Positions 29,955 through 57,918 of a stretch of DNA of 64,000 nt are shown here, one piece after another. This DNA is from a virus. The translations under genes were made by a program, and so were the position numbers. The stretch spans positions 38,736 through 102,735 of the IMG/VR virus record IMGVR_UViG_3300043772_001004, one strand, 5' to 3'. Every line of letters begins with the position of its first letter. The stretch's first letter is position 1. Under the pieces are notes generated by a model that ran no database searches, was not told the DNA's origin, and was given only the letters and a program-made list of their open reading frames with translations.

Positions 29955-31571
29955 TTATAGAGAGCCACCAGTAACTGGGTTTCTCATAACAATTTTCAAG
30001 ACTTTAGTTGGATCTTTAACCCAAATAGCTGGCATTGTTTGAGACATCATTACACGGTAACCATTGAATTGTCCAGAAGACTGGAACCCTTGAGTTCTAC
30101 CCATGTAGTCCATAGTACCATTTTGATACCACCACTTCAATTGGTTGTCCCAAGAAAGTTTCAATAAGAAGATATTATCATTAGTGTTATCAGTGATATC
30201 AAAGATAATGAATGAGTAAGAAGATAATGGGAAACCATCAATGATTGGGTTCTCAATATCATTTGTATGAACATTGTCAAATGCTGGGTTAAGAACAAAC
30301 TTAACATTTGCCAAGAATGGAATTACATATGAAGTATAAGCAAATCCAAAGTTCAAGTCCATACCTTTACCAGTGATAGCACCAATATCAGCAGCCTGAA
30401 TTAATAAACCTGATGCAATAGCTTCTTGTCTAATGGCCTCATTAACCATTCTCATTCCACCCATACCAGTTTGTACAACCAATGATCTTTTTGGATCTGG
30501 TCCTTGGAACTCAACCTTACCATTGAAGAAGTTATAGATTTCTCCACGGAATAAGTCAAGAGTAAAGTTATTTTTGTTGTATACTCTTTTGAACGCATTG
30601 TTCAACTGTTGCCAAAGTCCAGTAGAAAGTCTGATGTCATCTGGTCCATCTTGCTTAACTCTACCACCTTGTCCCCACATTAAGTAAGTCTCAATGTCAC
30701 TTGCAATTTTAGTTAAGTGAGCAGCTTCCATTTGAGTTAAGAAAGTTCTAGAAAGATCTCCATTATCAAATGCTTTTTTAACTTTATCCTTACCTAAAAC
30801 TTTTACCATATCTTCTAAAGATGTGATAGAAGGATCATTAGTAGCACCAAAGTTTCTCCAGATCTCAGTTACAGGAACTGTACCATCTGCATTCATACCA
30901 CCTTTGATCATTAAATCTGCTCTTGAAGAAACTGAATAATGTACGTGAGCTTCAGCACCACCAACAAAGTTGTAGTACTCACGGAAACCAGTTCTTGTAG
31001 TGATGTCAGAGAATCTTTCACCATACTCACCTCTTGCAGAACCTTTTCTAAAGAATCTAGTTCCATTGTTTAAGTATGAGTTATCCAAGAATTTAGTGTT
31101 GTCATTGTTCACAAGTTGAACTGTGTAAACATAACCATCACCTAATGGAAGAATATCTTCATCTGTAATGTACATCTCAACCCCATTATATTTGTCATAA
31201 GTGATGATATCACCATGTCCAAACTCTCTGCGGCTTAATTTAATTCTAAAGGTTGTTCCATCAATACCTTTGAAAGTATTAAGTGGTTCAATATCCTCAA
31301 GAATGTATGGAAGATCTGTAGAGACAGGAGTCTGCCACTTATACTCTCCACGAGCATTATCTACCATAATTACATTTTTCCCACCAAAACTTGACATTTG
31401 GTAAAGAGGCATTTCTACCTTTTGAGACATAGCCCAAAGGTCAACTGGACCTAAATCCATAGGTTCAGCATCTTTTAGCATGTTTACCAAGTGGTAAGAA
31501 TCCACATGGGAACTTGCATTGTAAGCGGTATCCCGAAGGAATATACCATTGTTTAAAATTGGAGTTGCCAT
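29955..31571 (-). CDS. Major capsid protein (crAss-like HK97 fold)
   Basis: 538 aa after TerL-portal-scaffold; E-x-YLMWG..GLWQQ..TGMGG..IWVKDPTK pattern. Confidence 0.85.
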   Translation of the reverse strand: MATPILNNGIFLRDTAYNASSHVDSYHLVNMLKDAEPMDLGPVDLWAMSQKVEMPLYQMSSFGGKNVIMVDNARGEYKWQTPVSTDLPYILEDIEPLNTFKGIDGTTFRIKLSRREFGHGDIITYDKYNGVEMYITDEDILPLGDGYVYTVQLVNNDNTKFLDNSYLNNGTRFFRKGSARGEYGERFSDITTRTGFREYYNFVGGAEAHVHYSVSSRADLMIKGGMNADGTVPVTEIWRNFGATNDPSITSLEDMVKVLGKDKVKKAFDNGDLSRTFLTQMEAAHLTKIASDIETYLMWGQGGRVKQDGPDDIRLSTGLWQQLNNAFKRVYNKNNFTLDLFRGEIYNFFNGKVEFQGPDPKRSLVVQTGMGGMRMVNEAIRQEAIASGLLIQAADIGAITGKGMDLNFGFAYTSYVIPFLANVKFVLNPAFDNVHTNDIENPIIDGFPLSSYSFIIFDITDNTNDNIFLLKLSWDNQLKWWYQNGTMDYMGRTQGFQSSGQFNGYRVMMSQTMPAIWVKDPTKVLKIVMRNPVTGGSL

Positions 31572-32942: not shown

Positions 32943-35687
32943 TTATTTTTCTTTCTTTGGATTGCCATCATATTTGTTTTTGTTTTCCTGTGCAATTTGT
33001 AGTTGTTTCTCTGCAATTTCCCTTTCTGTCTGAAGTCTTTCTCTTTCTATCTGGTTCTTCTGGTTCTCAATAGTCATTCTATTTACTTCTTTTTCTCTTT
33101 GAAGTCCAGTTTGTTCTTGATACTGTTCAGTCTCTCTAATATCTTTCATTGCATCTCTATAGTCAGACATTTGATTTTGATCAACATCTGCCGTAGCTCC
33201 ATAACCTGCAGCTCTAATTTCAGCAACCAAGATATCTCTTTGTCTGTTTTTCTCATTTTCAGCAGCAACAGAATCAATCTTCATTTGCTCAATCTCTTGT
33301 TGTTTTTGAAGTTGTTCTTGTTGCATTTGCTGTTGCTGTTGCATTTCTTGTTGTTTCTGCTGTTGTTGTTTTTGTTCAGAATCCTTAAGAACAACATTAA
33401 GAGCAGCAATAGAGTCTGACTGAACAACTTTACCTAGATCAAAAATAGATGCGCCTGTAGTATTATTTTGAATTGCCATTTGCTTTAACTGCTCAAGAAT
33501 AGCTCTATGATTTGCATTAGTACTAATAGCAATATTAAGATCTCTAAGTAAAAGATCAGTACCGTTAATTTCAAAGTTTACTTTCTCATCTGCAGAAGTA
33601 ATATAAGTTAATCTAGCAGATGGTTTAGTAGAATGATAGTATTGAGCTAAGTCAGTTCTCATCTGATGCACCCTAGGCATTAGATAATCACAATGCTGAA
33701 TAAAGAATATTTCTGTTTGAGCATAAGATGCTTGCATTGCCTGTTCTACTCCGGTAGCAGTTGATTGAGATAATTGTTGCCCCATTCTTTGAGGGTTAAC
33801 TCCAATTACTTCATATGCTTGTTGTTTAAAGTAGTTAGCTAAATTTATCCTAGACATTAATCTATTTGTTTGTTCTAGATCTAGTTTTTGGAAGTGTTGG
33901 AAGTTTAATGCATTCTCTGTATTTGTGATAGATGTATCTAAAGGAAGAATCTGGAAATTCTTCATTGCTACATAAGCTTTAGCATAATTACCTTTACCCC
34001 AATCTTCACCTAATGAATGTCTTGGTAAAGAGTTTTGATCAAGCATGATTACTGTACCAAGCTCATCAATTAATATATCTGCAATCTGATTGTTTACAAT
34101 GTTATATCCAATCTGGTATGGCTTCATTAAGTCAATAAGTGCAGTAGACTTAGTATTTCTATCTGAGAATACAGATCCTTCTACAGGAAGTTTACATCCA
34201 TATAAATTAGAATCTCCTTTAAACTGAAACTTAAGTGGGCCAATGTGGTTTCTATTTACACCAATATAGATAGGTGAGAATCCACCTGGGTTATTCATAC
34301 CCCAGAATGAAGGTACATTTGGTCCTATTTTTACTCCACCCCATACCTCATTAATCCAGATCCAATCTATATGCTCTCCAAAAAGTAAATTATCTTTTGT
34401 TTTATTTTTAAAGAGTCTAGTATCATATATTGGTTTATCTGTTATCTTATAGTCTTCTGTAACTATATCATTACTTACTTCACCTTCTTCTGTGATCTTT
34501 ACAAGATGTCCAACTTTTCTTTGTGACTTCCAGTATGCTTGAGTTACTCTAAGTAAGTATGCCGTACCTTGATCATAGTAATCTTCACCCTGAGAAAGTA
34601 TCTGAGTAACAACATCTGCTCCATCTAATACATTACCAGACATGAAAGATGTGTATTGTCTATATGCAAGAGATGGCATATTAGTATTCCATTCATGTGT
34701 TTTTGTACCATCATAGAATGAACCATCATTTTGTAGACCCCCAATATTATATCCAGCAGATCTAATTGGATATACAGACTCTAGAGCCTCATGTTGTTCT
34801 GTAGTAAGTAAGTGTCCAAATTTATCAATTACATCTGACACAGTGTACATATCTGTTTTACCTACCCAGTTTCCTTGTGAGGTATATCTAACATCTGGAG
34901 ACTTGTGATAGAATGTTAAAAGTGGATTCCATAATTCTACATCATAGTCATCTTCCATCATGTGAAAATGCCAGAACTCTCTATCAGTAATAAGCATATC
35001 TCTAAATGCTCTTTCCTCAAGTTCATCCATTCTAAATCTTTCTACATCTACTTTATGCTGATGTTCTGCCCACTGCTCTACCATTGAACGGTAATCTTTT
35101 TTGAAAAACTGTTCAATCTCTGGTAAAGTTTTTAAATTTTCAGGCTGTAGTTGTTTTGTGGCTTCTTCTGAATTTGGATCTAAACCTTGTTCAAGCATAG
35201 CTGCTAACATTTTAGTTGCAGCATCTGCCATTAAAGTTTGCTCAACCATTCCTCTTTTTTGCTCAAGCATCTCATTGTAAGAGAAATCATCAATGGCTCT
35301 ATAGGTAAGTCTAGTAGATCTTTTAGCAAATTCAGCTACTAGTACATTAACAACATTGGGTATAATAGGATAAAACTTTAGTTCAAGGGCTGATACATCT
35401 TCTTTGGTTAATACCTCTATAATATCTTTATACTCATTATCCTCTTCAAAAATATAGTCAGATCTATCAATTACCCCTTTTGCAAGTTTATAGTTTTTTA
35501 GTAACCGTCTAGCATTTCTTCTTATTTGTTTTAATCCTTGCCATTCTAACCAGTCTAAGTTCCAGGCAGCCCATTCTTCAGTTTTATCTTTTTTAGGTAA
35601 AAACTGTAATGGTTGGGTAATACTACCTAATCTATTCTGTTCTGTTTTAGCTCCTTTCTTAAGTTGTAATGCGTTATATACTTGCAT
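32943..35687 (-). CDS. Portal protein
   Basis: 914 aa after TerL; YPIIPNVVNVL, WINEVWGG, LMKPYQIGYNI, GVNPQRMG and Q-rich barrel. Confidence 0.9.
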   Translation of the reverse strand: MQVYNALQLKKGAKTEQNRLGSITQPLQFLPKKDKTEEWAAWNLDWLEWQGLKQIRRNARRLLKNYKLAKGVIDRSDYIFEEDNEYKDIIEVLTKEDVSALELKFYPIIPNVVNVLVAEFAKRSTRLTYRAIDDFSYNEMLEQKRGMVEQTLMADAATKMLAAMLEQGLDPNSEEATKQLQPENLKTLPEIEQFFKKDYRSMVEQWAEHQHKVDVERFRMDELEERAFRDMLITDREFWHFHMMEDDYDVELWNPLLTFYHKSPDVRYTSQGNWVGKTDMYTVSDVIDKFGHLLTTEQHEALESVYPIRSAGYNIGGLQNDGSFYDGTKTHEWNTNMPSLAYRQYTSFMSGNVLDGADVVTQILSQGEDYYDQGTAYLLRVTQAYWKSQRKVGHLVKITEEGEVSNDIVTEDYKITDKPIYDTRLFKNKTKDNLLFGEHIDWIWINEVWGGVKIGPNVPSFWGMNNPGGFSPIYIGVNRNHIGPLKFQFKGDSNLYGCKLPVEGSVFSDRNTKSTALIDLMKPYQIGYNIVNNQIADILIDELGTVIMLDQNSLPRHSLGEDWGKGNYAKAYVAMKNFQILPLDTSITNTENALNFQHFQKLDLEQTNRLMSRINLANYFKQQAYEVIGVNPQRMGQQLSQSTATGVEQAMQASYAQTEIFFIQHCDYLMPRVHQMRTDLAQYYHSTKPSARLTYITSADEKVNFEINGTDLLLRDLNIAISTNANHRAILEQLKQMAIQNNTTGASIFDLGKVVQSDSIAALNVVLKDSEQKQQQQKQQEMQQQQQMQQEQLQKQQEIEQMKIDSVAAENEKNRQRDILVAEIRAAGYGATADVDQNQMSDYRDAMKDIRETEQYQEQTGLQREKEVNRMTIENQKNQIERERLQTEREIAEKQLQIAQENKNKYDGNPKKEK

Positions 35688-38407: not shown

Positions 38408-39237
38408 TTCTTTTTAATTTTATCTTTATTATCATGCAAGTAATGCATAATAGCTGTTACTTCATCTTTTAGATAAGGTATCTCCATTTGTACTACATCT
38501 TTAACAATAGGGTCACCATTGTCATCATAGCTTGTTAATGGATACCCATATCTATCTTCCCCCTCTGTCTCAAATAGTATATGATGAATAAATATTTTCC
38601 CAGGTTGCAATTTGGGATTATGCTTTAGAATCATATACATATAAATACTTAGCTGTAAACAGTAGTGATTAAAATTACAGTCATCTAAATTAGATACAGG
38701 AGAGAGTAACTTTTCAGAAACTCCCTCCCAATCTTTGTATGATTCAGTCTTGATCTCTTTATTAGTTTTGTAATCAATAATGTTTATTTTACCATTAACT
38801 ACTTCTACGAGATCTGACTGACCACAGATGCCTACTGATTTAAGATAAACCATATGCTCTGGATACACGCCTGGCTCTAATTTTTGTGTAGGAGCTGTCT
38901 TAATTCCATTTGCTAAATCATTAGGTTTAAACACTGGAACTGTAACACCTTCTCTTTCTATTGAAGCTAAAGAACATAAGTCAGCTTCTCTTTGGTTATG
39001 ATAGAATGTTCCAAGAGTAACTGCTCTTTCTGATTCTGCATTCCAAATAGATATAATATCTTTTGGTGAAAAGCCATACCATTTAGATCTCTTATTCTTA
39101 CATACCTTCTTTGCAATTTTCTCTGCATCAAAAGGTTTTTTAAAATGAGATACTAGTGTAGTAACACTTATCCAATTAATCTCTGAGCCATCATTGCTTT
39201 TATAGCTATGATCTTTGGCATTAAATACTATACTCAT
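38404..39237 (-). CDS. PD-(D/E)XK exonuclease (Cas4/lambda-exo-like)
   Basis: SVTT, GTFYH, E..GQSDL..IIDYKT, YCLQLSIY motifs. Confidence 0.85.
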   Translation of the reverse strand: MSIVFNAKDHSYKSNDGSEINWISVTTLVSHFKKPFDAEKIAKKVCKNKRSKWYGFSPKDIISIWNAESERAVTLGTFYHNQREADLCSLASIEREGVTVPVFKPNDLANGIKTAPTQKLEPGVYPEHMVYLKSVGICGQSDLVEVVNGKINIIDYKTNKEIKTESYKDWEGVSEKLLSPVSNLDDCNFNHYCLQLSIYMYMILKHNPKLQPGKIFIHHILFETEGEDRYGYPLTSYDDNGDPIVKDVVQMEIPYLKDEVTAIMHYLHDNKDKIKKK

Positions 39238-50881: not shown

Positions 50882-51079
50882 TTATTTAATTATTCTGTGA
50901 AAAGTTATATTACTTTTTGCACGTATGTCCTTATGGGTATACTGCCAGAACTCACCTGTTTCATTTATTATCACAGTGTATATAGTATCTGTTTCATGCC
51001 CATAGTCAGTAACTAACCAAATAACCCCCGGGCCTTTTGGTGTAATAACTTCTACTCTGTTTGTAGGTTCATAGATCAT
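50882..51079 (-). CDS. Small hypothetical phage protein
   Basis: VITPKG..DYG..TGEFW; ATGA-type overlap with upstream gene. Confidence 0.65.
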   Translation of the reverse strand: MIYEPTNRVEVITPKGPGVIWLVTDYGHETDTIYTVIINETGEFWQYTHKDIRAKSNITFHRIIK

Positions 51080-51744
51080 GGCAGTTCCATTTTAATTTTT
51101 TCATCCCGCTCTACTAGTGTCTTATATAACTCTATATCTGTTGACCATTCTGCACCTGTCCAAAACTCAAACCCAGAATAGTTAGATTTATACAAACAAC
51201 ACTGCTCATACCCACCCAACAAATATACATATTCACAGCCTAATATTCTAGCTGTTTCACATTCATACATTTGAGCTACAGTACCCAGTGATAATTTAGG
51301 ATTAGCATAATCCCATATAAACTGGTATGCCACAAATTGATCATTGAATGTTTTGTACAAACTAATCCCTACCAAATCTCCATCCCAGTATTCTATAACA
51401 GAGCAATCTTCAAATGATGATAAACTAATATCCCGCTTAAACCCATGATAGTCACAATACTTCTCATAGAGCTCAGAATACTTTTCTCTTTCAGCAGCTA
51501 CATTGCCTGCTTGAACTATAACTCTCTTTGATAATTTCTTAGTAGTCTTTGATGGGGAGTACTCATTTAAATTAATCCGGGTACTTCTTTCATTGTACCA
51601 CTTACCCTCCCAGGGAATCCATCCTTGTTTAAGTGCATCTGTAGAAGATTCATTAGGATCTAGTATACCATAAGCACAATTGACTATAACTTCTAGATCA
51701 CTTACTTTGCCAAACCCATTAATGTGATCAAAGTAGACTTTCAC
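51076..51744 (-). CDS. ATE1/Bpt-like aminoacyl-tRNA--protein transferase
   Basis: ALKQGW, STRINLNEYSPSK, ELYEKY, IEYWDGDLVG, LSLGT..E..AR.LG..YVYL..YK match the ATE_N/ATE_C pattern of Bpt/ATE1. Confidence 0.75.
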   Translation of the reverse strand: MKVYFDHINGFGKVSDLEVIVNCAYGILDPNESSTDALKQGWIPWEGKWYNERSTRINLNEYSPSKTTKKLSKRVIVQAGNVAAEREKYSELYEKYCDYHGFKRDISLSSFEDCSVIEYWDGDLVGISLYKTFNDQFVAYQFIWDYANPKLSLGTVAQMYECETARILGCEYVYLLGGYEQCCLYKSNYSGFEFWTGAEWSTDIELYKTLVERDEKIKMELP

Positions 51745-52187
51745 TTTCTAGAGAAGAAGTTTTTCTTAGGTGTCTCTACCTTGGTAGTTTTAAGTTTCTC
51801 AATGATCTTGTTTGCTTCATCTTCAGCAAACTGAATAACCTCTTCTTCTTTATCCTTGATATTCCAGTTGTTTAGTAGAATACTCATGTGCATAGTTTCA
51901 TGCATAACAGCTGTGGCTTTCTCTGTAGTAGAATACTTCTTGAAAGTTCCTAAGTTCAAAAACAAGAAAGGTTTGTTGGGAGCTTTTGCTGTAAGTTTTG
52001 TATCAGCAGGATCATAGTTAGTAAGACCATACATGTAAACTCCATTGCCTTTGGTCTTATCTACTTCTTCAGCCTGAGCATCTGCTCTGTTTAAGCCATG
52101 CATCTCCGGGACCTTGTAATAGTCAAAGATCTCAGTAGCATCATTACCAATGAGTAGGATATACTTACCCATGTCAAACTTCTTCAT
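51741..52187 (-). CDS. HExxH zincin-like protein
   Basis: VMHETMH followed by a downstream EEE; overlaps transferase start by 4 nt. Confidence 0.55.
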   Translation of the reverse strand: MKKFDMGKYILLIGNDATEIFDYYKVPEMHGLNRADAQAEEVDKTKGNGVYMYGLTNYDPADTKLTAKAPNKPFLFLNLGTFKKYSTTEKATAVMHETMHMSILLNNWNIKDKEEEVIQFAEDEANKIIEKLKTTKVETPKKNFFSRK

Positions 52188-52202
52188 ATACTAATATACA
52201 AA

Positions 52203-52334
52203 TTATTTCTTAAACTCTGTATTACTATAAGCATCACACTTTTGGGAGGACTTGCACCCAGTCATAAGATACCCTATAGCAACTCCTATACATAAAGCAA
52301 ATATATATAGGCAAAATAGTTTATACTTTTCCAT
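52203..52334 (-). CDS. Small lipoprotein (43 aa, CDAY motif)
   Basis: Not in track. MEKYKLFCLYIFALCIGVAIGYLMTGCKSSQKCDAYSNTEFKK; TATATTTG 4 nt upstream of ATG. Confidence 0.6.
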   Translation of the reverse strand: MEKYKLFCLYIFALCIGVAIGYLMTGCKSSQKCDAYSNTEFKK

Positions 52335-52487
52335 GTAACAAATATAATAAAATAACAAAGGCCCGGGCTTTCAACTCCAGACCTTTGTGCTATTTATTAA
52401 CCCTTAAAAATAACATGACAAATATAAAACTAAATTTTAAAATTCCAAACCGGTAGGCAAAATATTTTATAGTAGAGATAGTGTGGA

Positions 52488-52537
52488 CCCCCCTATAGCA
52501 ACCCCCCCGCCCCACTGGCCAGCCCTGGTACCCCCCC
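52488..52537. other. C-rich tract (G-quadruplex-capable on minus strand) at the strand switch
   Basis: C6, C7, C4, C3 and C7 runs within 50 bp of an otherwise AT-rich genome. Confidence 0.6.
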
Positions 52538-52614
52538 ACAAAGCCAGCACACTACCATCACACAACAAAAAATAAAACATTTTCCTTGGGGGAAAATCTT
52601 CTATTTTTTCTAGA

Positions 52615-53067: not shown

Positions 53068-53090
53068 ATTAATCCTTTAAAAATTGACTT

Positions 53091-53600
53091 ATGAGCAATG
53101 CAAAGAAAACAGAGACAACTGAACAAACAAATTTGGCAAAGAGTACTAAAATTGTTGCTGTGTATGCAGGACGTGGTACCAATAATCAACAAGGGCATAA
53201 AAACTTTGGGAAGAAATTCTTTAAATATGACCTTGAAGGACCGGCCTCTGATATAAAAGAATTTCTAGAACATCCATCTAATGTAGAGTATGGCGTGAAA
53301 TATAACAGAGATAACAAGCCACAGTATTGGTGCAACTGGAAAGATGCTTTTGGAACAATAGGTACTAGATACAAAGTAAACGTGTCTATATATGGGACTT
53401 ATGTATTAGACAAGGAAGAGTCCTATGATATAGAAGATACTTTGGAAGCATTAGAAAACCGTGGTCTAAGTACTGCGGCAAGAGTATATGCTGAACAAGT
53501 CCTAGGTAGTAGACTAGGATTAGGCTTGAATAAAGCAAGTGTAAGCAGACATACTGTAACAGCATCTGATGGAAGCGACGCTAGTTTAGACCAGGAATAG
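53091..53600 (+). CDS. Early hypothetical protein
   Basis: ORF track; acidic C-terminal tail. Confidence 0.7.
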   Translation: MSNAKKTETTEQTNLAKSTKIVAVYAGRGTNNQQGHKNFGKKFFKYDLEGPASDIKEFLEHPSNVEYGVKYNRDNKPQYWCNWKDAFGTIGTRYKVNVSIYGTYVLDKEESYDIEDTLEALENRGLSTAARVYAEQVLGSRLGLGLNKASVSRHTVTASDGSDASLDQE

Positions 53601-53682
53601 GTCTAGGCATACCCTAATGGAACATACAGTGGTACTAGAAATAGTGCTACTGTATAGTTCCTTTTGTTTTACCTTTATTTTG

Positions 53683-53712
53683 TACAACCCGCCACTTGGC
53701 AAAAATATGTTT
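53683..53712 (+). promoter_or_regulatory. Putative early promoter, TACAACCC motif copy 3
   Basis: TACAACCC-N3-ACTTGGCAAAAATAT. Confidence 0.45.
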
Positions 53713-54043
53713 TAGTTTCTTATCTTATATATTTATATTATATATTTTAGATACTACAAGATATCTACTAAAACACACCAATAAGCTAGTATTACTTAGG
53801 AGATACAGTATAATACTTAAATGATATGTGATATTTATTATTTATGTGTATACATATTGTAAATAAGTGTATGTTATTGTAAGTAACTGATTATTAACCC
53901 AATCACTCTACTTAACTATACTTATACTTAGTATTTATATATTATATTATTATATCTATAATAATATTTATATAGCTAACTTATTACTTAATCAGTATTG
54001 TCTAACCCTTATATATAAATCTTATCTTATGATTTTTAAAACT

Positions 54044-54160
54044 ATGATTCAGATGTTTCAAGGTAACTTACACCTTGTACAGTATGTTAAGTACTCTAAT
54101 GGTAAAGTAGTAAAAAGAGTGCTTGATAAACAAGGACTCCCGATTGCTATTTTCAGCTAA
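54044..54160 (+). CDS. Small hypothetical protein (38 aa)
   Basis: MIQMFQGNLHLVQYVKYSNGKVVKRVLDKQGLPIAIFS after an A-rich leader. Confidence 0.4.
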   Translation: MIQMFQGNLHLVQYVKYSNGKVVKRVLDKQGLPIAIFS

Positions 54161-54255
54161 CCATATTATTCTTAGTACTATGACAACAGCAATTATCTGG
54201 GGATTTGTATTCTTATTATCTTATATTAAATATTGGATAATAAAATAATCCCAAC

Positions 54256-54282
54256 TATCCTGAGTAGGATATAAAACTGCTC
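54256..54282 (+). ncRNA. Small H-type pseudoknot motif, copy 1
   Basis: TATCC-TGAGTA-GGATA-TAAAAC-TGCTC; second copy at 55552. Confidence 0.5.
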
Positions 54283-54289
54283 TTTATAT

Positions 54290-54404
54290 ACTCTCATCCA
54301 AGCAGGAATATTATTCATAGGATGTATGATTCTGTCACCACCTATACATTGTGGGGTAACTGAATAATATTTGTTACAAGGATTGCAACCTTGTGAGAGT
54401 ACCA
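54290..54404 (+). ncRNA. tRNA-like structured RNA 1 (acceptor stem, T-like arm, encoded CCA)
   Basis: ACTCTCA/TGAGAGT-A-CCA; CAAGG-ATTGCAA-CCTTG; internal 11-bp stem AATATTATTCA/TGAATAATATT. Confidence 0.5.
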
Positions 54405-54406
54405 AT

Positions 54407-54521
54407 AATCAGATAGAGAAGAAAGTTCTCACTCAGCAGTATAACTGACTAGTATACACTTATGTCTAGTCAACATAAGAAAAACTGAGAGGTCAGCAGG
54501 TGAAAGTCCTGCTTCTGATTA
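54407..54521 (+). ncRNA. tRNA-like structured RNA 2 (cloverleaf with expanded anticodon loop)
   Basis: AATCAGA/TCTGATT; GAGAA/TTCTC; CTCAG/CTGAG; AGGTC variable loop; AGCAGG-TGAAAGT-CCTGCT. Confidence 0.55.
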
Positions 54522-54547
54522 AGAATTATTCACTTAAAAATATAACT

Positions 54548-54721
54548 ATGTACGAATACTGTATAAATAGTGAAATATTATTCTCTACATATGACTTAAG
54601 AAGACATATTAGAATAATGAAAGCAAGAATGAACCACCATAAAAGTATTGGTGGTAAAGTAGGTTACTTTAAAAACCAAATCAAAATTGCAGAAAAAAAA
54701 CTTCTTAAGAAACTTTATTAA
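54548..54721 (+). CDS. Small basic hypothetical protein
   Basis: Start re-assigned to ATG 54548 because the track GTG lies inside the structured RNA. Confidence 0.5.
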   Translation: MYEYCINSEILFSTYDLRRHIRIMKARMNHHKSIGGKVGYFKNQIKIAEKKLLKKLY

Positions 54722-55551: not shown

Positions 55552-55578
55552 TGTCCTGAGTATGACAATAAAGTGCTC
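55552..55578 (+). ncRNA. Small H-type pseudoknot motif, copy 2
   Basis: TGTC-CTGAGTAT-GACA-ATAAAG-TGCTC with a compensatory change versus copy 1. Confidence 0.5.
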
Positions 55579-55630: not shown

Positions 55631-56542
55631 ATGAGAAATTTATCTACTAAGGGTTTAAGCATGTCCCAAGCACAATCAATATCTAACTTGTGTAATCAAA
55701 ATGCTGTTGAGATTCAACGTGAGTTGGATTCTTACAACAACTGCAGTAAAACTATTACTGTTAATGGTGAAAGCTACTTATTACAAGAAGGAATATCTAT
55801 TCCTGATAATGTAATTGAGAAGCTTAAAATCAAGGGTGATTTACATGCTTGTCAAGCTTTCCTTATGGAAGCTATCAAGGGTAAAGAAGCTTACATGGAT
55901 GATTTAAGGAGAGCTACTCCTGATTTATCTAACTTAGTTAAACCTGAAAGGGTTTATGCTCCTGACTTTGATGAGTTACCAGGTGTAACAGAATCATGGG
56001 GTTGGACACAACTAAGTGATAGTGAGTATTCTGAGTACTTACAAGCTGAAGCAATGGCTTCTCACTTGGGTCAATTTATCCATAGAAATGGTAAGTTATC
56101 TGAGTTGAGAAAGCAACTACCTCATATTGCTAGTATTGAGTGGTTTGAAGTGGAAGAAGGTAAAAAGACTCCGGTCAAAGTTACCAAGCATCACATGTCA
56201 AGCCCATTAATGGTACTACATGAGGAGATTGCTGAACAACATAGAAAGTATGAGCAACGTGTTAATTACTTCAAAGCTAAGGTTAAGAACTTAACTAGTG
56301 ATGAGAATGCACGTATTCAGAAATTGAATGCAGATAAAGCTGCTGAATTCTTAATCATTGAGCAAAAACTCAATGAAGAGTATCAGTTAGCTATGGATGC
56401 ATATCATGGTGAAGTGCTTAGACTTACTATGGAGTTTAATAGTCAACGAGAGTTGGATATTAAAGCTGCTGCAGCATTGAGAATCAATGTTGATCCTAGA
56501 TTTCAAGATGTAATAAACTTGTTTGTTGCTCCTGAGAAATAG
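55631..56542 (+). CDS. Coiled-coil-rich hypothetical protein (~303 aa)
   Basis: Start re-assigned to ATG 55631 after an AAAACCAAAACAA leader; GLSMSQAQSISN, EAMASHLGQFIH motifs. Confidence 0.7.
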   Translation: MRNLSTKGLSMSQAQSISNLCNQNAVEIQRELDSYNNCSKTITVNGESYLLQEGISIPDNVIEKLKIKGDLHACQAFLMEAIKGKEAYMDDLRRATPDLSNLVKPERVYAPDFDELPGVTESWGWTQLSDSEYSEYLQAEAMASHLGQFIHRNGKLSELRKQLPHIASIEWFEVEEGKKTPVKVTKHHMSSPLMVLHEEIAEQHRKYEQRVNYFKAKVKNLTSDENARIQKLNADKAAEFLIIEQKLNEEYQLAMDAYHGEVLRLTMEFNSQRELDIKAAAALRINVDPRFQDVINLFVAPEK

Positions 56543-56548
56543 GAACTT

Positions 56549-56849
56549 ACATACTAGGTGAGCAAGAGATAGGCACAAGCTGATTCTCTTGCTCTTTATG
56601 TTAAGTGACAAGAATTTTTTTATTTGTGATTGATTATCACACAATAATTAATAAAATTAATACAACTAATTTTACCGCTTCTCTTCAAACTTTATAAAAA
56701 CTGAGATAGAACTCCCACATTAGACAGGTTATGCATAATATATGCAATTGGCTAACATTGAGACTTAGTATTTGTATTTGCCTTTGTGTGAAGAGAAGGT
56801 CTTTGAATTTGTTTTTGTATTTGATTTTAGCTATATATTCTTGTCACTT
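56549..56849 (+). ncRNA. Candidate ~300-nt structured ncRNA with GNNUUU repeats
   Basis: Perfect 13-bp (56603-15/56837-49) and 10-bp (56678-87/56789-98) nested long-range stems, plus 5' hairpin GAGCAAGAGA/TCTCTTGCTC. Confidence 0.55.
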
Positions 56850-57824: not shown

Positions 57825-57898
57825 GGTCCTGTAGCTCAGCTGGATAGAGCAATTGCCTTCTAAGCAATAGGTCCTTGGTTCGAATCCAAGCAGGATCA
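57825..57898 (+). tRNA. tRNA-Arg (anticodon TCT), CCA not encoded
   Basis: GGTCCTG/CAGGATC acceptor; GCTC/GAGC D-stem; ATTGC-CTTCTAA-GCAAT; CTTGG-TTCGAAT-CCAAG. Confidence 0.95.
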
Positions 57899-57918
57899 CT
57901 AACTTTTAAATATATTAT

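Follow-up and report, generated by a model that had tools for sequence, protein, structure and literature searches.

We analysed a 64,000-nt stretch of viral DNA (the window; IMG/VR record IMGVR_UViG_3300043772_001004, positions 38,736 to 102,735), which is the right 64 kb of a 102.7-kb phage contig with an estimated completeness of 87%. Terminase, portal and capsid proteins of this phage match crAss-like PHROGs; the terminase shares 23–25% sequence identity with those of Flavobacterium phages and gut crAss-like phages, and the sequence is present in lake-water metatranscriptomes. Two tRNA-shaped elements, RNA1 and RNA2, sit in a ∼950-nt stretch without a long open reading frame (ORF) (53600–54548; ORFs of at most 43 amino acids), located 3′ of a terminator-like hairpin and a promoter-like motif and 5′ of rightward early genes. 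RNA1 has the following parts.

54290–54401, + strand: RNA1, consisting of an acceptor-like stem, a D-like segment, a cargo arm, a T-like hairpin and an A73-like A
54290–54296, + strand: 5′ strand of the acceptor-like stem, ACUCUCA, pairing with UGAGAGU at 54394–54400
54297–54306, + strand: D-like segment UCCAAGCAGG, in which CC/GG may form a 2-bp mini-stem and GCA is complementary to UGC in the T-like loop
54307–54376, + strand: cargo arm, a hypervariable 70-nt insert closed by a long stem and unique to this genome
54377–54393, + strand: T-like hairpin CAAGG-AUUGCAA-CCUUG, with a non-canonical loop containing the palindrome UUGCAA
54394–54404, + strand: 3′ strand of the acceptor-like stem, UGAGAGU (54394–54400), the A73-like A (54401) and CCA (54402–54404)

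The T-like hairpin stacks on the acceptor-like strand without a linker. This is the layout given by an initial annotation of the locus, in which a 7-bp acceptor stem with discriminator A and CCA adjoins a 5-bp/7-nt T-like arm and a single long stem.

Conservation and covariation of RNA1

Sequence comparison places RNA1 in a large and so far uncatalogued family of RNAs from freshwater crAss-like phages. The gene downstream of RNA1 led to nine related loci, all nine of which contain an RNA1 homologue. We scanned IMG/VR with two patterns, one anchored on the 3′ core and the other on the 5′ core, each matching at least 116 contigs; as each scan fixed one end only, the opposite end was free to vary. 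From the matches listed we extracted 135 distinct elements (46–243 nt) at 128 loci, to which all counts out of 135 below refer. The elements share the 5′ end ACUCUCA-UCCAA(UU)GCAGG and the 3′ end CAAGG-RUUGCAA-CCUUG-UGAGAGU-AC. The D-like segment reads UCCAAGCAGG in 102 of the 135 and UCCAAUUGCAGG, a form with a UU insertion, in 26, and the T-like loop is RUUGCAA in all but one (134/135). The window copy carries every core letter of the family consensus and scores 72.6 bits with our model R1 (E = 1.7e-13, the copy being part of the training alignment); copies outside the training set score 34–79 bits.

Near-complete genomes contain one copy of RNA1 and sometimes two, which in one pair lie 32 nt apart. 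The element is found on the strand of the rightward genes, always just 5′ of them and 1–6 kb from the end of the leftward module in our synteny table. Seven loci have a minority form, in which UCCAA is also paired to give a 12–13-bp closing stem, and which adds a hairpin after the T-like arm and a terminal U-run. In one lineage, the sole RNA1 copy of a 100%-complete genome is 46 nt long with next to no cargo; an ORF overlaps its 5′ half, so that this copy may be a relic.

The acceptor-like stem shows compensatory double changes at four of its seven pairs, together with G·U intermediates. Pair 1 changes from A-U to U-A or G-C, pairs 2 and 6 from C-G to U-A, and pair 7 from A-U to G-C. Locus L095 alters four pairs together (GUUCUUG/CAAGAAC), and the form ACUCUUG/CAAGAGU, found in L053 and L126, is linked to the common form by a G·U intermediate in L103. 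In the T-like stem, C-G is replaced by U-A (two cases) or U·G (11 cases) and A-U by G-C (one case). In a core alignment of 45 sequences (A3), which we enriched for variants so that its counts are not frequencies, 99.7% of cells are paired, compared with 35–45% when the partners are slid, and double changes occur at six pairs; 0 of 500 shuffles reach the observed values. All class-A copies have U-A at pair 3 (every one of the 45 rows of A3). At least 18 U·G or G·U variants pair on the + strand only and would become A·C mismatches on the other strand, which identifies RNA1 as an RNA read from the + strand.

RNAalifold and inspection yield a four-way fold for the family, in which the acceptor-like stem and the T-like hairpin are accompanied by the cargo arm and by a tiny D-like hairpin, CC/GG enclosing AAGCA or AAUUGCA. 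The fold energy of RNA1 is unremarkable (z = −1.46), and the bare shape is common: a 7-bp stem beside a 5-bp/7-nt hairpin occurs 30 times on the + strand of the AT-rich window. We thus count RNA1 as real on account of its conservation and covariation in more than 120 related loci rather than its shape or fold energy, and on this basis it is almost certainly a genuine, conserved structured RNA. If the D-like GCA pairs with UGC in the T-like loop, the fold would acquire an elbow-like corner, and the UU insertion in the D-like segment would lengthen this complementarity to UUGCA:UGCAA. The GCA:UGC pairing is neither supported nor refuted by comparison of 44 sequences, as its partners are invariant in them.

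Searches against known RNAs returned no described family for RNA1, as the initial annotation had proposed to check with ARAGORN and the Rfam models; the search for homologues and covariation that it had also proposed yielded the conservation and the paired changes in related phages described above. Apart from a tRNA-Arg gene, Rfam 15 gave no real match for the whole window at gathering thresholds, nor for 54100–54700 and the leaders of two relatives at E values up to 10, where chance matches of snoRNA, sRNA and Xist type were the sole returns. The tRNA model (RF00005) has no match within 54100–54700 even at E up to 10. ARAGORN in default and tmRNA (transfer-messenger RNA) modes calls nothing at RNA1 or RNA2, and tRNA-Arg(UCU) at 57825–57899 is the only tRNA that ARAGORN or Rfam locates in the window. 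Among GenBank phages the 1.2-kb region is unmatched, and a 31-nt core gives chance partial matches only. We found no paper describing these motifs; the motif might be among the 8,495 candidate structured RNAs catalogued from IMG/VR in 2023 (PMC10690425).

Among 185,579 species genomes, the core is found in four contigs of metagenome-assembled genomes (MAGs), one of them a 117.8-kb, phage-sized contig in a Chitinophagaceae MAG. We thus see no host counterpart of the RNA, as the core in species genomes sits on MAG contigs, one of phage size. This RNA1-bearing contig (L221; JBIPNK010000148.1, 117,852 bp) was binned in a Lake Mendota Chitinophagaceae MAG, which is either a binning artefact or a weak hint to the host. 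We also considered that the T-like loop together with GCAGG might correspond to the anticodon arm of tRNA-Ala(UGC), a presumed likeness that we did not retain; seven exact TTGCAAGCAGG sites in the Chitinophagaceae MAG are not tRNA genes.

Comparison of RNA1 with tRNA genes

RNA1 shares with tRNAs a 7-bp acceptor stem stacked on a 5-bp T stem, an unpaired N73 and the sequence of its flanks. U occupies position −1 in 122 of the 135 elements, position −2 is solely A or T, and positions −5 to −3 are almost solely A or T. The stem is followed by A in 119/135 and then by C, again in 119/135, by any base at the third position and mostly by A thereafter. The CCA noted in the initial annotation is encoded in this genome but is not a feature of the family, the window form ACCA being present in 13 of the 135 elements. 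In this phage family, genuine tRNA genes (31 for tRNA-Arg(UCU), others for Asn, Leu and Met) have T at −1 and ends of the type …AC-TA; just two of them encode CCA, and several begin with A1-U72 as RNA1 does. The flanks of RNA1 resemble those of real tRNA genes and thus fit processing by tRNA enzymes; this is our best, if indirect, indication that RNA1 may enter the tRNA maturation pathway. We found no phage-encoded CCA-adding enzyme or RtcB in these phages, so any processing would be the work of host enzymes.

The canonical T loop U54-U55-C56-R57-A58 and the D loop G18-G19 are absent from RNA1, whose loop reads AUUGCAA (RUUGCAA in the family). In neither RNA is there a tRNA anticodon arm (7-nt loop, U33, conserved anticodon): this place is taken by cargo in RNA1 and by a 48-nt loop in RNA2. 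The initial annotation had suggested processed tRNA mimics. RNA1 is indeed a genuine, non-coding, tRNA-shaped RNA with a non-canonical core and tRNA-like flanks, but its encoded CCA is not conserved.

The cargo arm

The inserts vary from 5 to 202 nt and fall into 54 unrelated types. The initial annotation had raised decoys for anticodon nucleases as one possible role. With so many unrelated middle types, and one lineage with almost none, RNA1 has no conserved anticodon-like loop and the family no common anticodon mimic, although individual cargos could still mimic something. The window type is a singleton, without a relative among 120 distinct cargos. The commonest type is represented by 12 distinct sequences, in which compensatory changes occur at ten pairs surrounding a conserved 7-nt loop; this indicates that the inserts are structured RNA as well. 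Cargos appear to be replaced wholesale. The window and locus L011 have an identical 5′ scaffold and are identical again from the T-like hairpin through the end of RNA2 (∼145 nt), but their cargos are unrelated; the similarity ends 4 nt past RNA2. In four other pairs of loci, 150-nt downstream flanks are at least 95% identical and the cargo types are unrelated.

We rejected a coding role for the cargo: although the window cargo contains a 13-codon ORF, start codons and frames are not maintained inside a cargo type. Nor do the cargos look like antisense regulators of the phage's own genes, as the longest matches of both cargos are within the shuffle range, and for the window cargo there is no significant match, sense or antisense, in the rest of the genome of this phage. 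The cargos of the window leader and of the two relatives' leaders are unmatched to known RNAs in the Rfam searches up to E 10. The L012 cargo holds a canonical-looking T arm (AGUGG-UUCAAAU-CCACU) and other tRNA-like pieces, and may represent a degenerate tRNA nested in the scaffold.

RNA2

RNA2 follows RNA1 directly and folds into a cloverleaf.

54407–54521, + strand: RNA2, a cloverleaf with tRNA junction letters
54407–54413 with 54514–54520, + strand: acceptor AAUCAGA/UCUGAUU, followed by UA
54416–54430, + strand: D-like hairpin GAGAA-GAAAG-UUCUC
54432–54436 with 54485–54489, + strand: stem CUCAG/CUGAG around a 48-nt loop holding two overlapping 7-bp hairpins
54490–54494, + strand: AGGUC, identical to the variable loop of tRNA-Arg (57825–57899)
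54495–54513, + strand: T-like hairpin AGCAGG-UGAAAGU-CCUGCU, of 6 bp, or of 5 bp plus one extra nucleotide

All of these elements, from the acceptor, UA and D-like hairpin to the UGAAAGU arm, had been located correctly in the initial annotation. It had also described the two insert hairpins as mutually exclusive, which their geometry bears out, as they overlap without linkers. The cloverleaf is both the minimum-energy and the centroid fold (z = −2.96), and one of 200 shuffles folds as well. The T-like and D loops are non-canonical (UGAAAGU and GAAAG). RNA2 keeps U8-A9, A26, AGGUC and A73, and thus resembles a degenerate tRNA body carrying a 48-nt insert. An intron-containing tRNA, as had been suggested, finds no support: no tRNA model matches and ARAGORN makes no call at normal thresholds, reporting RNA2 only when the threshold is lowered to 60%, and then with a 41-nt ‘intron’ and no U33 in the loop. 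We know of no way in which bacteria would splice such a tRNA insert.

Copies of RNA2 are found only in about six near-identical contigs and are 100% identical, so that RNA2 is without comparative support; we found no diverged homologues, and model R1 has no match at 54407–54521 at E up to 1. The 17-nt hairpin of RNA2 can be found in 54 contigs, for the most part in unrelated contexts. GCAGG-UGAAAGU-CCUGC (54496–54512 in the window) recurs right after stop codons in L061, L019, L025, L142, L208 and L054, where the U/A-rich tail after the hairpin is homologous to the sequence 3′ of RNA2, and it has the look of a hairpin module common to gene ends. Whether RNA2 functions as a tRNA-shaped RNA is in our judgment a close call, leaning slightly to the negative.

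Transcription and neighbouring modules

Upstream of RNA1 we identified the following features.

52615, 53038 and 53683 (third copy 53683–53690, + strand): T-run and TACAACCC, a promoter-like motif in three copies, candidate early promoter
53624–53655: terminator-like hairpin, preceding the stretch without long ORFs
54256–54282, + strand: 27-nt pseudoknot-type module (CCUGAGUAGGAUAUAAAACUGCUC), ending 7 nt before RNA1 and unique in the window at up to 3 mismatches

The metatranscriptome evidence comes from assembled contigs of four lake runs, which show neither RNA ends nor levels. RNA contigs in all four begin at 53070–53078, ∼32–40 nt past the start of the second motif copy (53038), and the third copy (53683) is likely to be the start of the transcription unit holding RNA1 and RNA2. 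A gene for a 169-residue protein (53091–53600) is recovered as a discrete RNA contig (53070–53629) at 20–53x in all four runs; this contig stops at the hairpin at 53624–53655 and is the most abundant unit in the 8 kb examined. The leftward late genes (51000–52600) are almost uncovered. One RNA contig, spanning RNA1 and RNA2, covers 54020–54587 at ∼4x, and contig depth is about five-fold higher from ∼54546–54581 onward, with downstream genes reaching 21x; as these are contigs only, the low depth at 54020–54587 and the missing cover at 53775–54019 carry no weight either way. The contigs thus show no more than that RNA libraries with silent late genes contain the region of RNA1 and RNA2. Further downstream, a gene-free stretch (56496–56830) after a gene for a 326-residue protein has its own RNA contig, at 28x in run X4 versus 2–5x for its neighbours.

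The sequences around RNA1 are mosaic. On its 5′ side are various modules, each ending in a hairpin and an A/U-rich linker, and 2–6 nt past its ‘AC’ follows one of a small set of recurring modules. The 27-nt pseudoknot-type motif ends 2–7 nt before RNA1 in seven other loci. A diverged second copy (55552–55578) overlaps the start codon of the 326-residue protein, and a 22-codon hydrophobic ORF (MTTAIIWGFVFLLSYIKYWIIK) at 54181–54249 stops 6 nt short of the motif at 54256–54282. In L019, L035, L052, L067, L073, L080 and L084, a 55-nt module closed by CCACAAG/CUUGUGG is located 5–7 nt 5′ of RNA1; its interior CCUCUCAUCCUGUAAAGCAGGGGUUGAC echoes the RNA1 core, the module can form a pseudoknot (CAGG/CCUG and AACCUCU/AGGGGUU), and one-sided changes preserve its pairs. 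Another recurring module (L130, L135, L090, L007 and L068) starts with UAAUGCACC, continues with the hairpin CCUGA-UUCCCAAGG-UCAGG and a variable insert, and ends in GUGCAGAGGGG; it begins 2–7 nt after RNA1 in L090, L007 and L068, and after a U-run in L130 and L135. We take this module to resemble the twister ribozyme, with the cleavage site at the 3′ tail of RNA1, but Rfam returns no twister match at E up to 10. In L128 and L129 a gene for an HNH homing endonuclease (159–187 amino acids) lies just 3′ of RNA1, with a partially duplicated 3′ motif of RNA1 (AGUUGCAACUGUGAGAGUA) ahead of the gene. The sequence AGUUGCAAC is also found 3′ of tRNA genes in L129, L097 and L030.

No neighbouring protein family is constant across RNA1 loci. 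We rejected the 326-residue downstream protein as an obligate partner, as a homologue is found downstream in 34 of the 97 loci with enough flank. On the − strand, 51076–51744 encodes a 222-residue protein with an ATE_C (arginine-tRNA-protein transferase) domain (E = 5.8e-9).

Discussion

We tentatively propose, at somewhat less than even confidence in the mechanism as a whole, that RNA1 is a tRNA-shaped scaffold with exchangeable cargo, which host tRNA enzymes would cut from an early leader. The RNA1 gene, placed in the leader of the rightward early operon, would be transcribed with the operon. Host RNase P would cut at U(−1)/A(+1), and host 3′ enzymes would trim past A73-C74 and complete CCA, as for the phage's own tRNA genes. 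Cutting would separate the upstream message, with the pseudoknot module at its end, from the downstream one, and the released stable small RNA would display its cargo. RNA2 might be a second, clade-restricted scaffold of the same logic, partly built on the gene-end hairpin module of relatives. The turnover of cargos suggests a role in host-specific conflict. It is conceivable, though rather unlikely, that RNA1 is a natural ‘tRNA scaffold’ display, in which hypervariable cargos exchanged as cassettes act as strain-specific decoys, sponges or aptamers against host factors.

Several observations weigh against excision by tRNA enzymes. One RNA contig spans RNA1 and RNA2 uncut, and the proposed processed ends are deduced from the DNA, the RNA data being assembled contigs. 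RNase P needs no near-invariant primary sequence, so that something else must also read the scaffold: a sequence-specific partner, loop-loop pairing or homogenisation by recombination must add to RNase P. The acceptor sequence as such can change, as L095 shows. Recognition by tRNA enzymes is not guaranteed, given a T-like loop without T54, Ψ55, C56 and A58 and no normal D arm. The long closing stem and U-run of the minority form look like termination and not like tRNA-type 3′ processing, the 46-nt copy, partly overlapped by an ORF, may be a relic, and the covariation counts of A3 come from an alignment enriched by us for variants. For RNA2, the 3′ hairpin and tail are, as far as sequence homology goes, those of the relatives' gene-end hairpin, and its copies have not diverged.

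RNA1 could instead act in cis, as a leader element whose junction binds RNA polymerase, a phage factor or a ligand, in the manner of put/EAR-type antitermination or a riboswitch-like attenuator, with the insert as a tolerated stem. Its constant position just upstream of rightward early genes, the near-invariant junction and loop letters beside a variable arm, which is an aptamer pattern, the terminator-like minority form and the roughly five-fold rise in depth just 3′ of RNA1 all speak for this. We nevertheless think it unlikely, as the downstream genes vary widely among phages, most copies have neither a U-run nor an alternative terminator, the flanks mimic tRNA genes, and the cargo helices are themselves under structural selection; two copies in some genomes, in one case 32 nt apart, would be odd for a leader switch. 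A decoy or sponge for defence systems that attack the top half or the 3′ end of tRNA (acceptor-end nucleases, nucleotidyltransferase or acetyltransferase toxins), or cargos acting as strain-specific decoys or aptamers, would account for early expression, for the tRNA-like top half and flanks and for the extreme turnover of cargos by cassette exchange, as seen at anti-defence loci. Direct evidence for such a decoy is absent, however, an invariant scaffold is unexpected if it tracks diverse host tRNAs, the loops are non-canonical and the cargos searched against Rfam match no known RNA, and we regard this explanation, too, as not probable.

That RNA1 is a new small self-cleaving or otherwise catalytic RNA module, one of several processing modules in these leaders, is suggested by the ∼45-nt near-invariant core with its possible pseudoknot and freely variable peripheral arm, and by a neighbourhood made up of a string of shuffled RNA modules. 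It is very unlikely in our view, as no Rfam ribozyme family (twister, hammerhead, HDV-like, pistol or hatchet) matches the leaders of the window and of two relatives at E up to 10, we identified no conserved candidate cleavage dinucleotide, and the tRNA-like flanks already offer a route for processing. RNA1 might also be charged by a host synthetase and serve as an aminoacyl donor for an ATE/Bpt-like transferase or another enzyme, a role for which the initial annotation had named the transferase, and to which the acceptor-like stem, A73, the CCA encoded in this genome and the ATE_C-domain protein at 51076–51744 would lend themselves. This now appears highly improbable: the transferase is present in only two of five near-complete RNA1-bearing genomes and absent from the other three, CCA is encoded in 13/135 elements, the L095 acceptor differs at four of seven pairs, and RNA1 offers no G3:U70, anticodon or canonical D/T elbow for synthetase identity. 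A feature of the DNA itself, namely a recombination or homing-endonuclease target flanking shuffled DNA and without RNA function, would explain why mosaicism breaks inside and right after RNA1 and why L128 and L129 have an HNH gene beside it, with a partial duplicate of the 3′ motif. Selection at the DNA level does not predict double compensatory changes and strand-specific G·U pairs in both stems and in cargo helices, which makes this account extremely improbable.

Of known systems, we presume the T4 species 1 and 2 RNAs (rnaC, rnaD) to be among the closest to RNA1. The T5 RNAs (RNA1 and RNA2 of that phage, NC_005859 misc_RNA 30501–30644 and 32959–33083) are annotated as ‘tRNA-like stable RNA with unknown functions’. 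Like RNA1 of the window, they are phage-encoded and non-coding, have an acceptor-like stem and a T arm framing an enlarged middle, and are found among other RNA genes and homing-endonuclease genes. The T5 RNAs differ in having canonical GG D loops and the T loops UUCGAAU and UUCAACU and in being located inside a tRNA cluster, whereas our RNA1 has the loop RUUGCAA and no D arm, is usually present once per genome and has its cargo replaced wholesale among relatives. Judged by fold and loop letters, neither RNA of the window has the class II tRNA D arm and T loop, with an insert for the anticodon, that define the T5 type. The crAss-like phage phi14:2 is reported to have two early intergenic regions of unknown function that are transcribed above most genes and persist (10.1101/2020.03.07.982082). 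We detected no RNA1-like element in the T5 RNA cluster or in the early non-coding region of phi14:2, either by shape scan or with model R1.

The tRNA-like domain of tmRNA is laid out like RNA1: its T arm sits on the acceptor, the D analogue is single-stranded and a long helix takes the position of the anticodon arm. tmRNA differs from RNA1 in having G3:U70 and a canonical T loop, as well as pseudoknots and a tag reading frame. Neither ARAGORN nor Rfam calls a tmRNA here, and pair 3 is U-A, not G3:U70. In the bacterial Y RNA YrlA, the tRNA-like part lies inside the molecule, whose ends make up the Ro-binding stem. YrlA (PMC4201824) resembles RNA1 in being non-coding, in mimicking part of a tRNA and in occurring also in phages; no Rfam Y-RNA family matches in the window. 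The proposed excision itself has counterparts in tRNA punctuation and tRNA-like 3′-end processing (mitochondrial transcripts, MALAT1/mascRNA), where a tRNA-shaped fold recruits RNase P and 3′ enzymes and cuts a long transcript, and the display of cargo in the engineered bacterial ‘tRNA scaffold’ (same group as PMC3753655), a stable RNA with a foreign insert at the anticodon position. Those cases are eukaryotic, organellar or of laboratory design, whereas RNA1 represents a natural phage family, which would be processed in a similar way. In the literature searched, we found no natural phage family of tRNA-shaped scaffolds with exchangeable cargo.

Taken together, our analysis places RNA1 in a family that is large (hundreds of environmental phage genomes), strongly constrained and absent from Rfam 15, from GenBank phages and from the literature searched. 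If RNA1 is excised by RNase P and 3′ enzymes, phages would punctuate early polycistronic RNAs with tRNA mimics, which would explain a possible purpose of the ‘tRNA-like stable RNAs’ of T4 and T5 and would provide a natural, evolution-tested scaffold for the expression of foreign RNA in Bacteroidota. As cargos are replaced wholesale among near-identical phages, the RNA is likely to have a fast-evolving function in the interaction of phage and host; if the displayed cargos do act against host factors, the family would be an RNA counterpart of hypervariable anti-defence protein islands.

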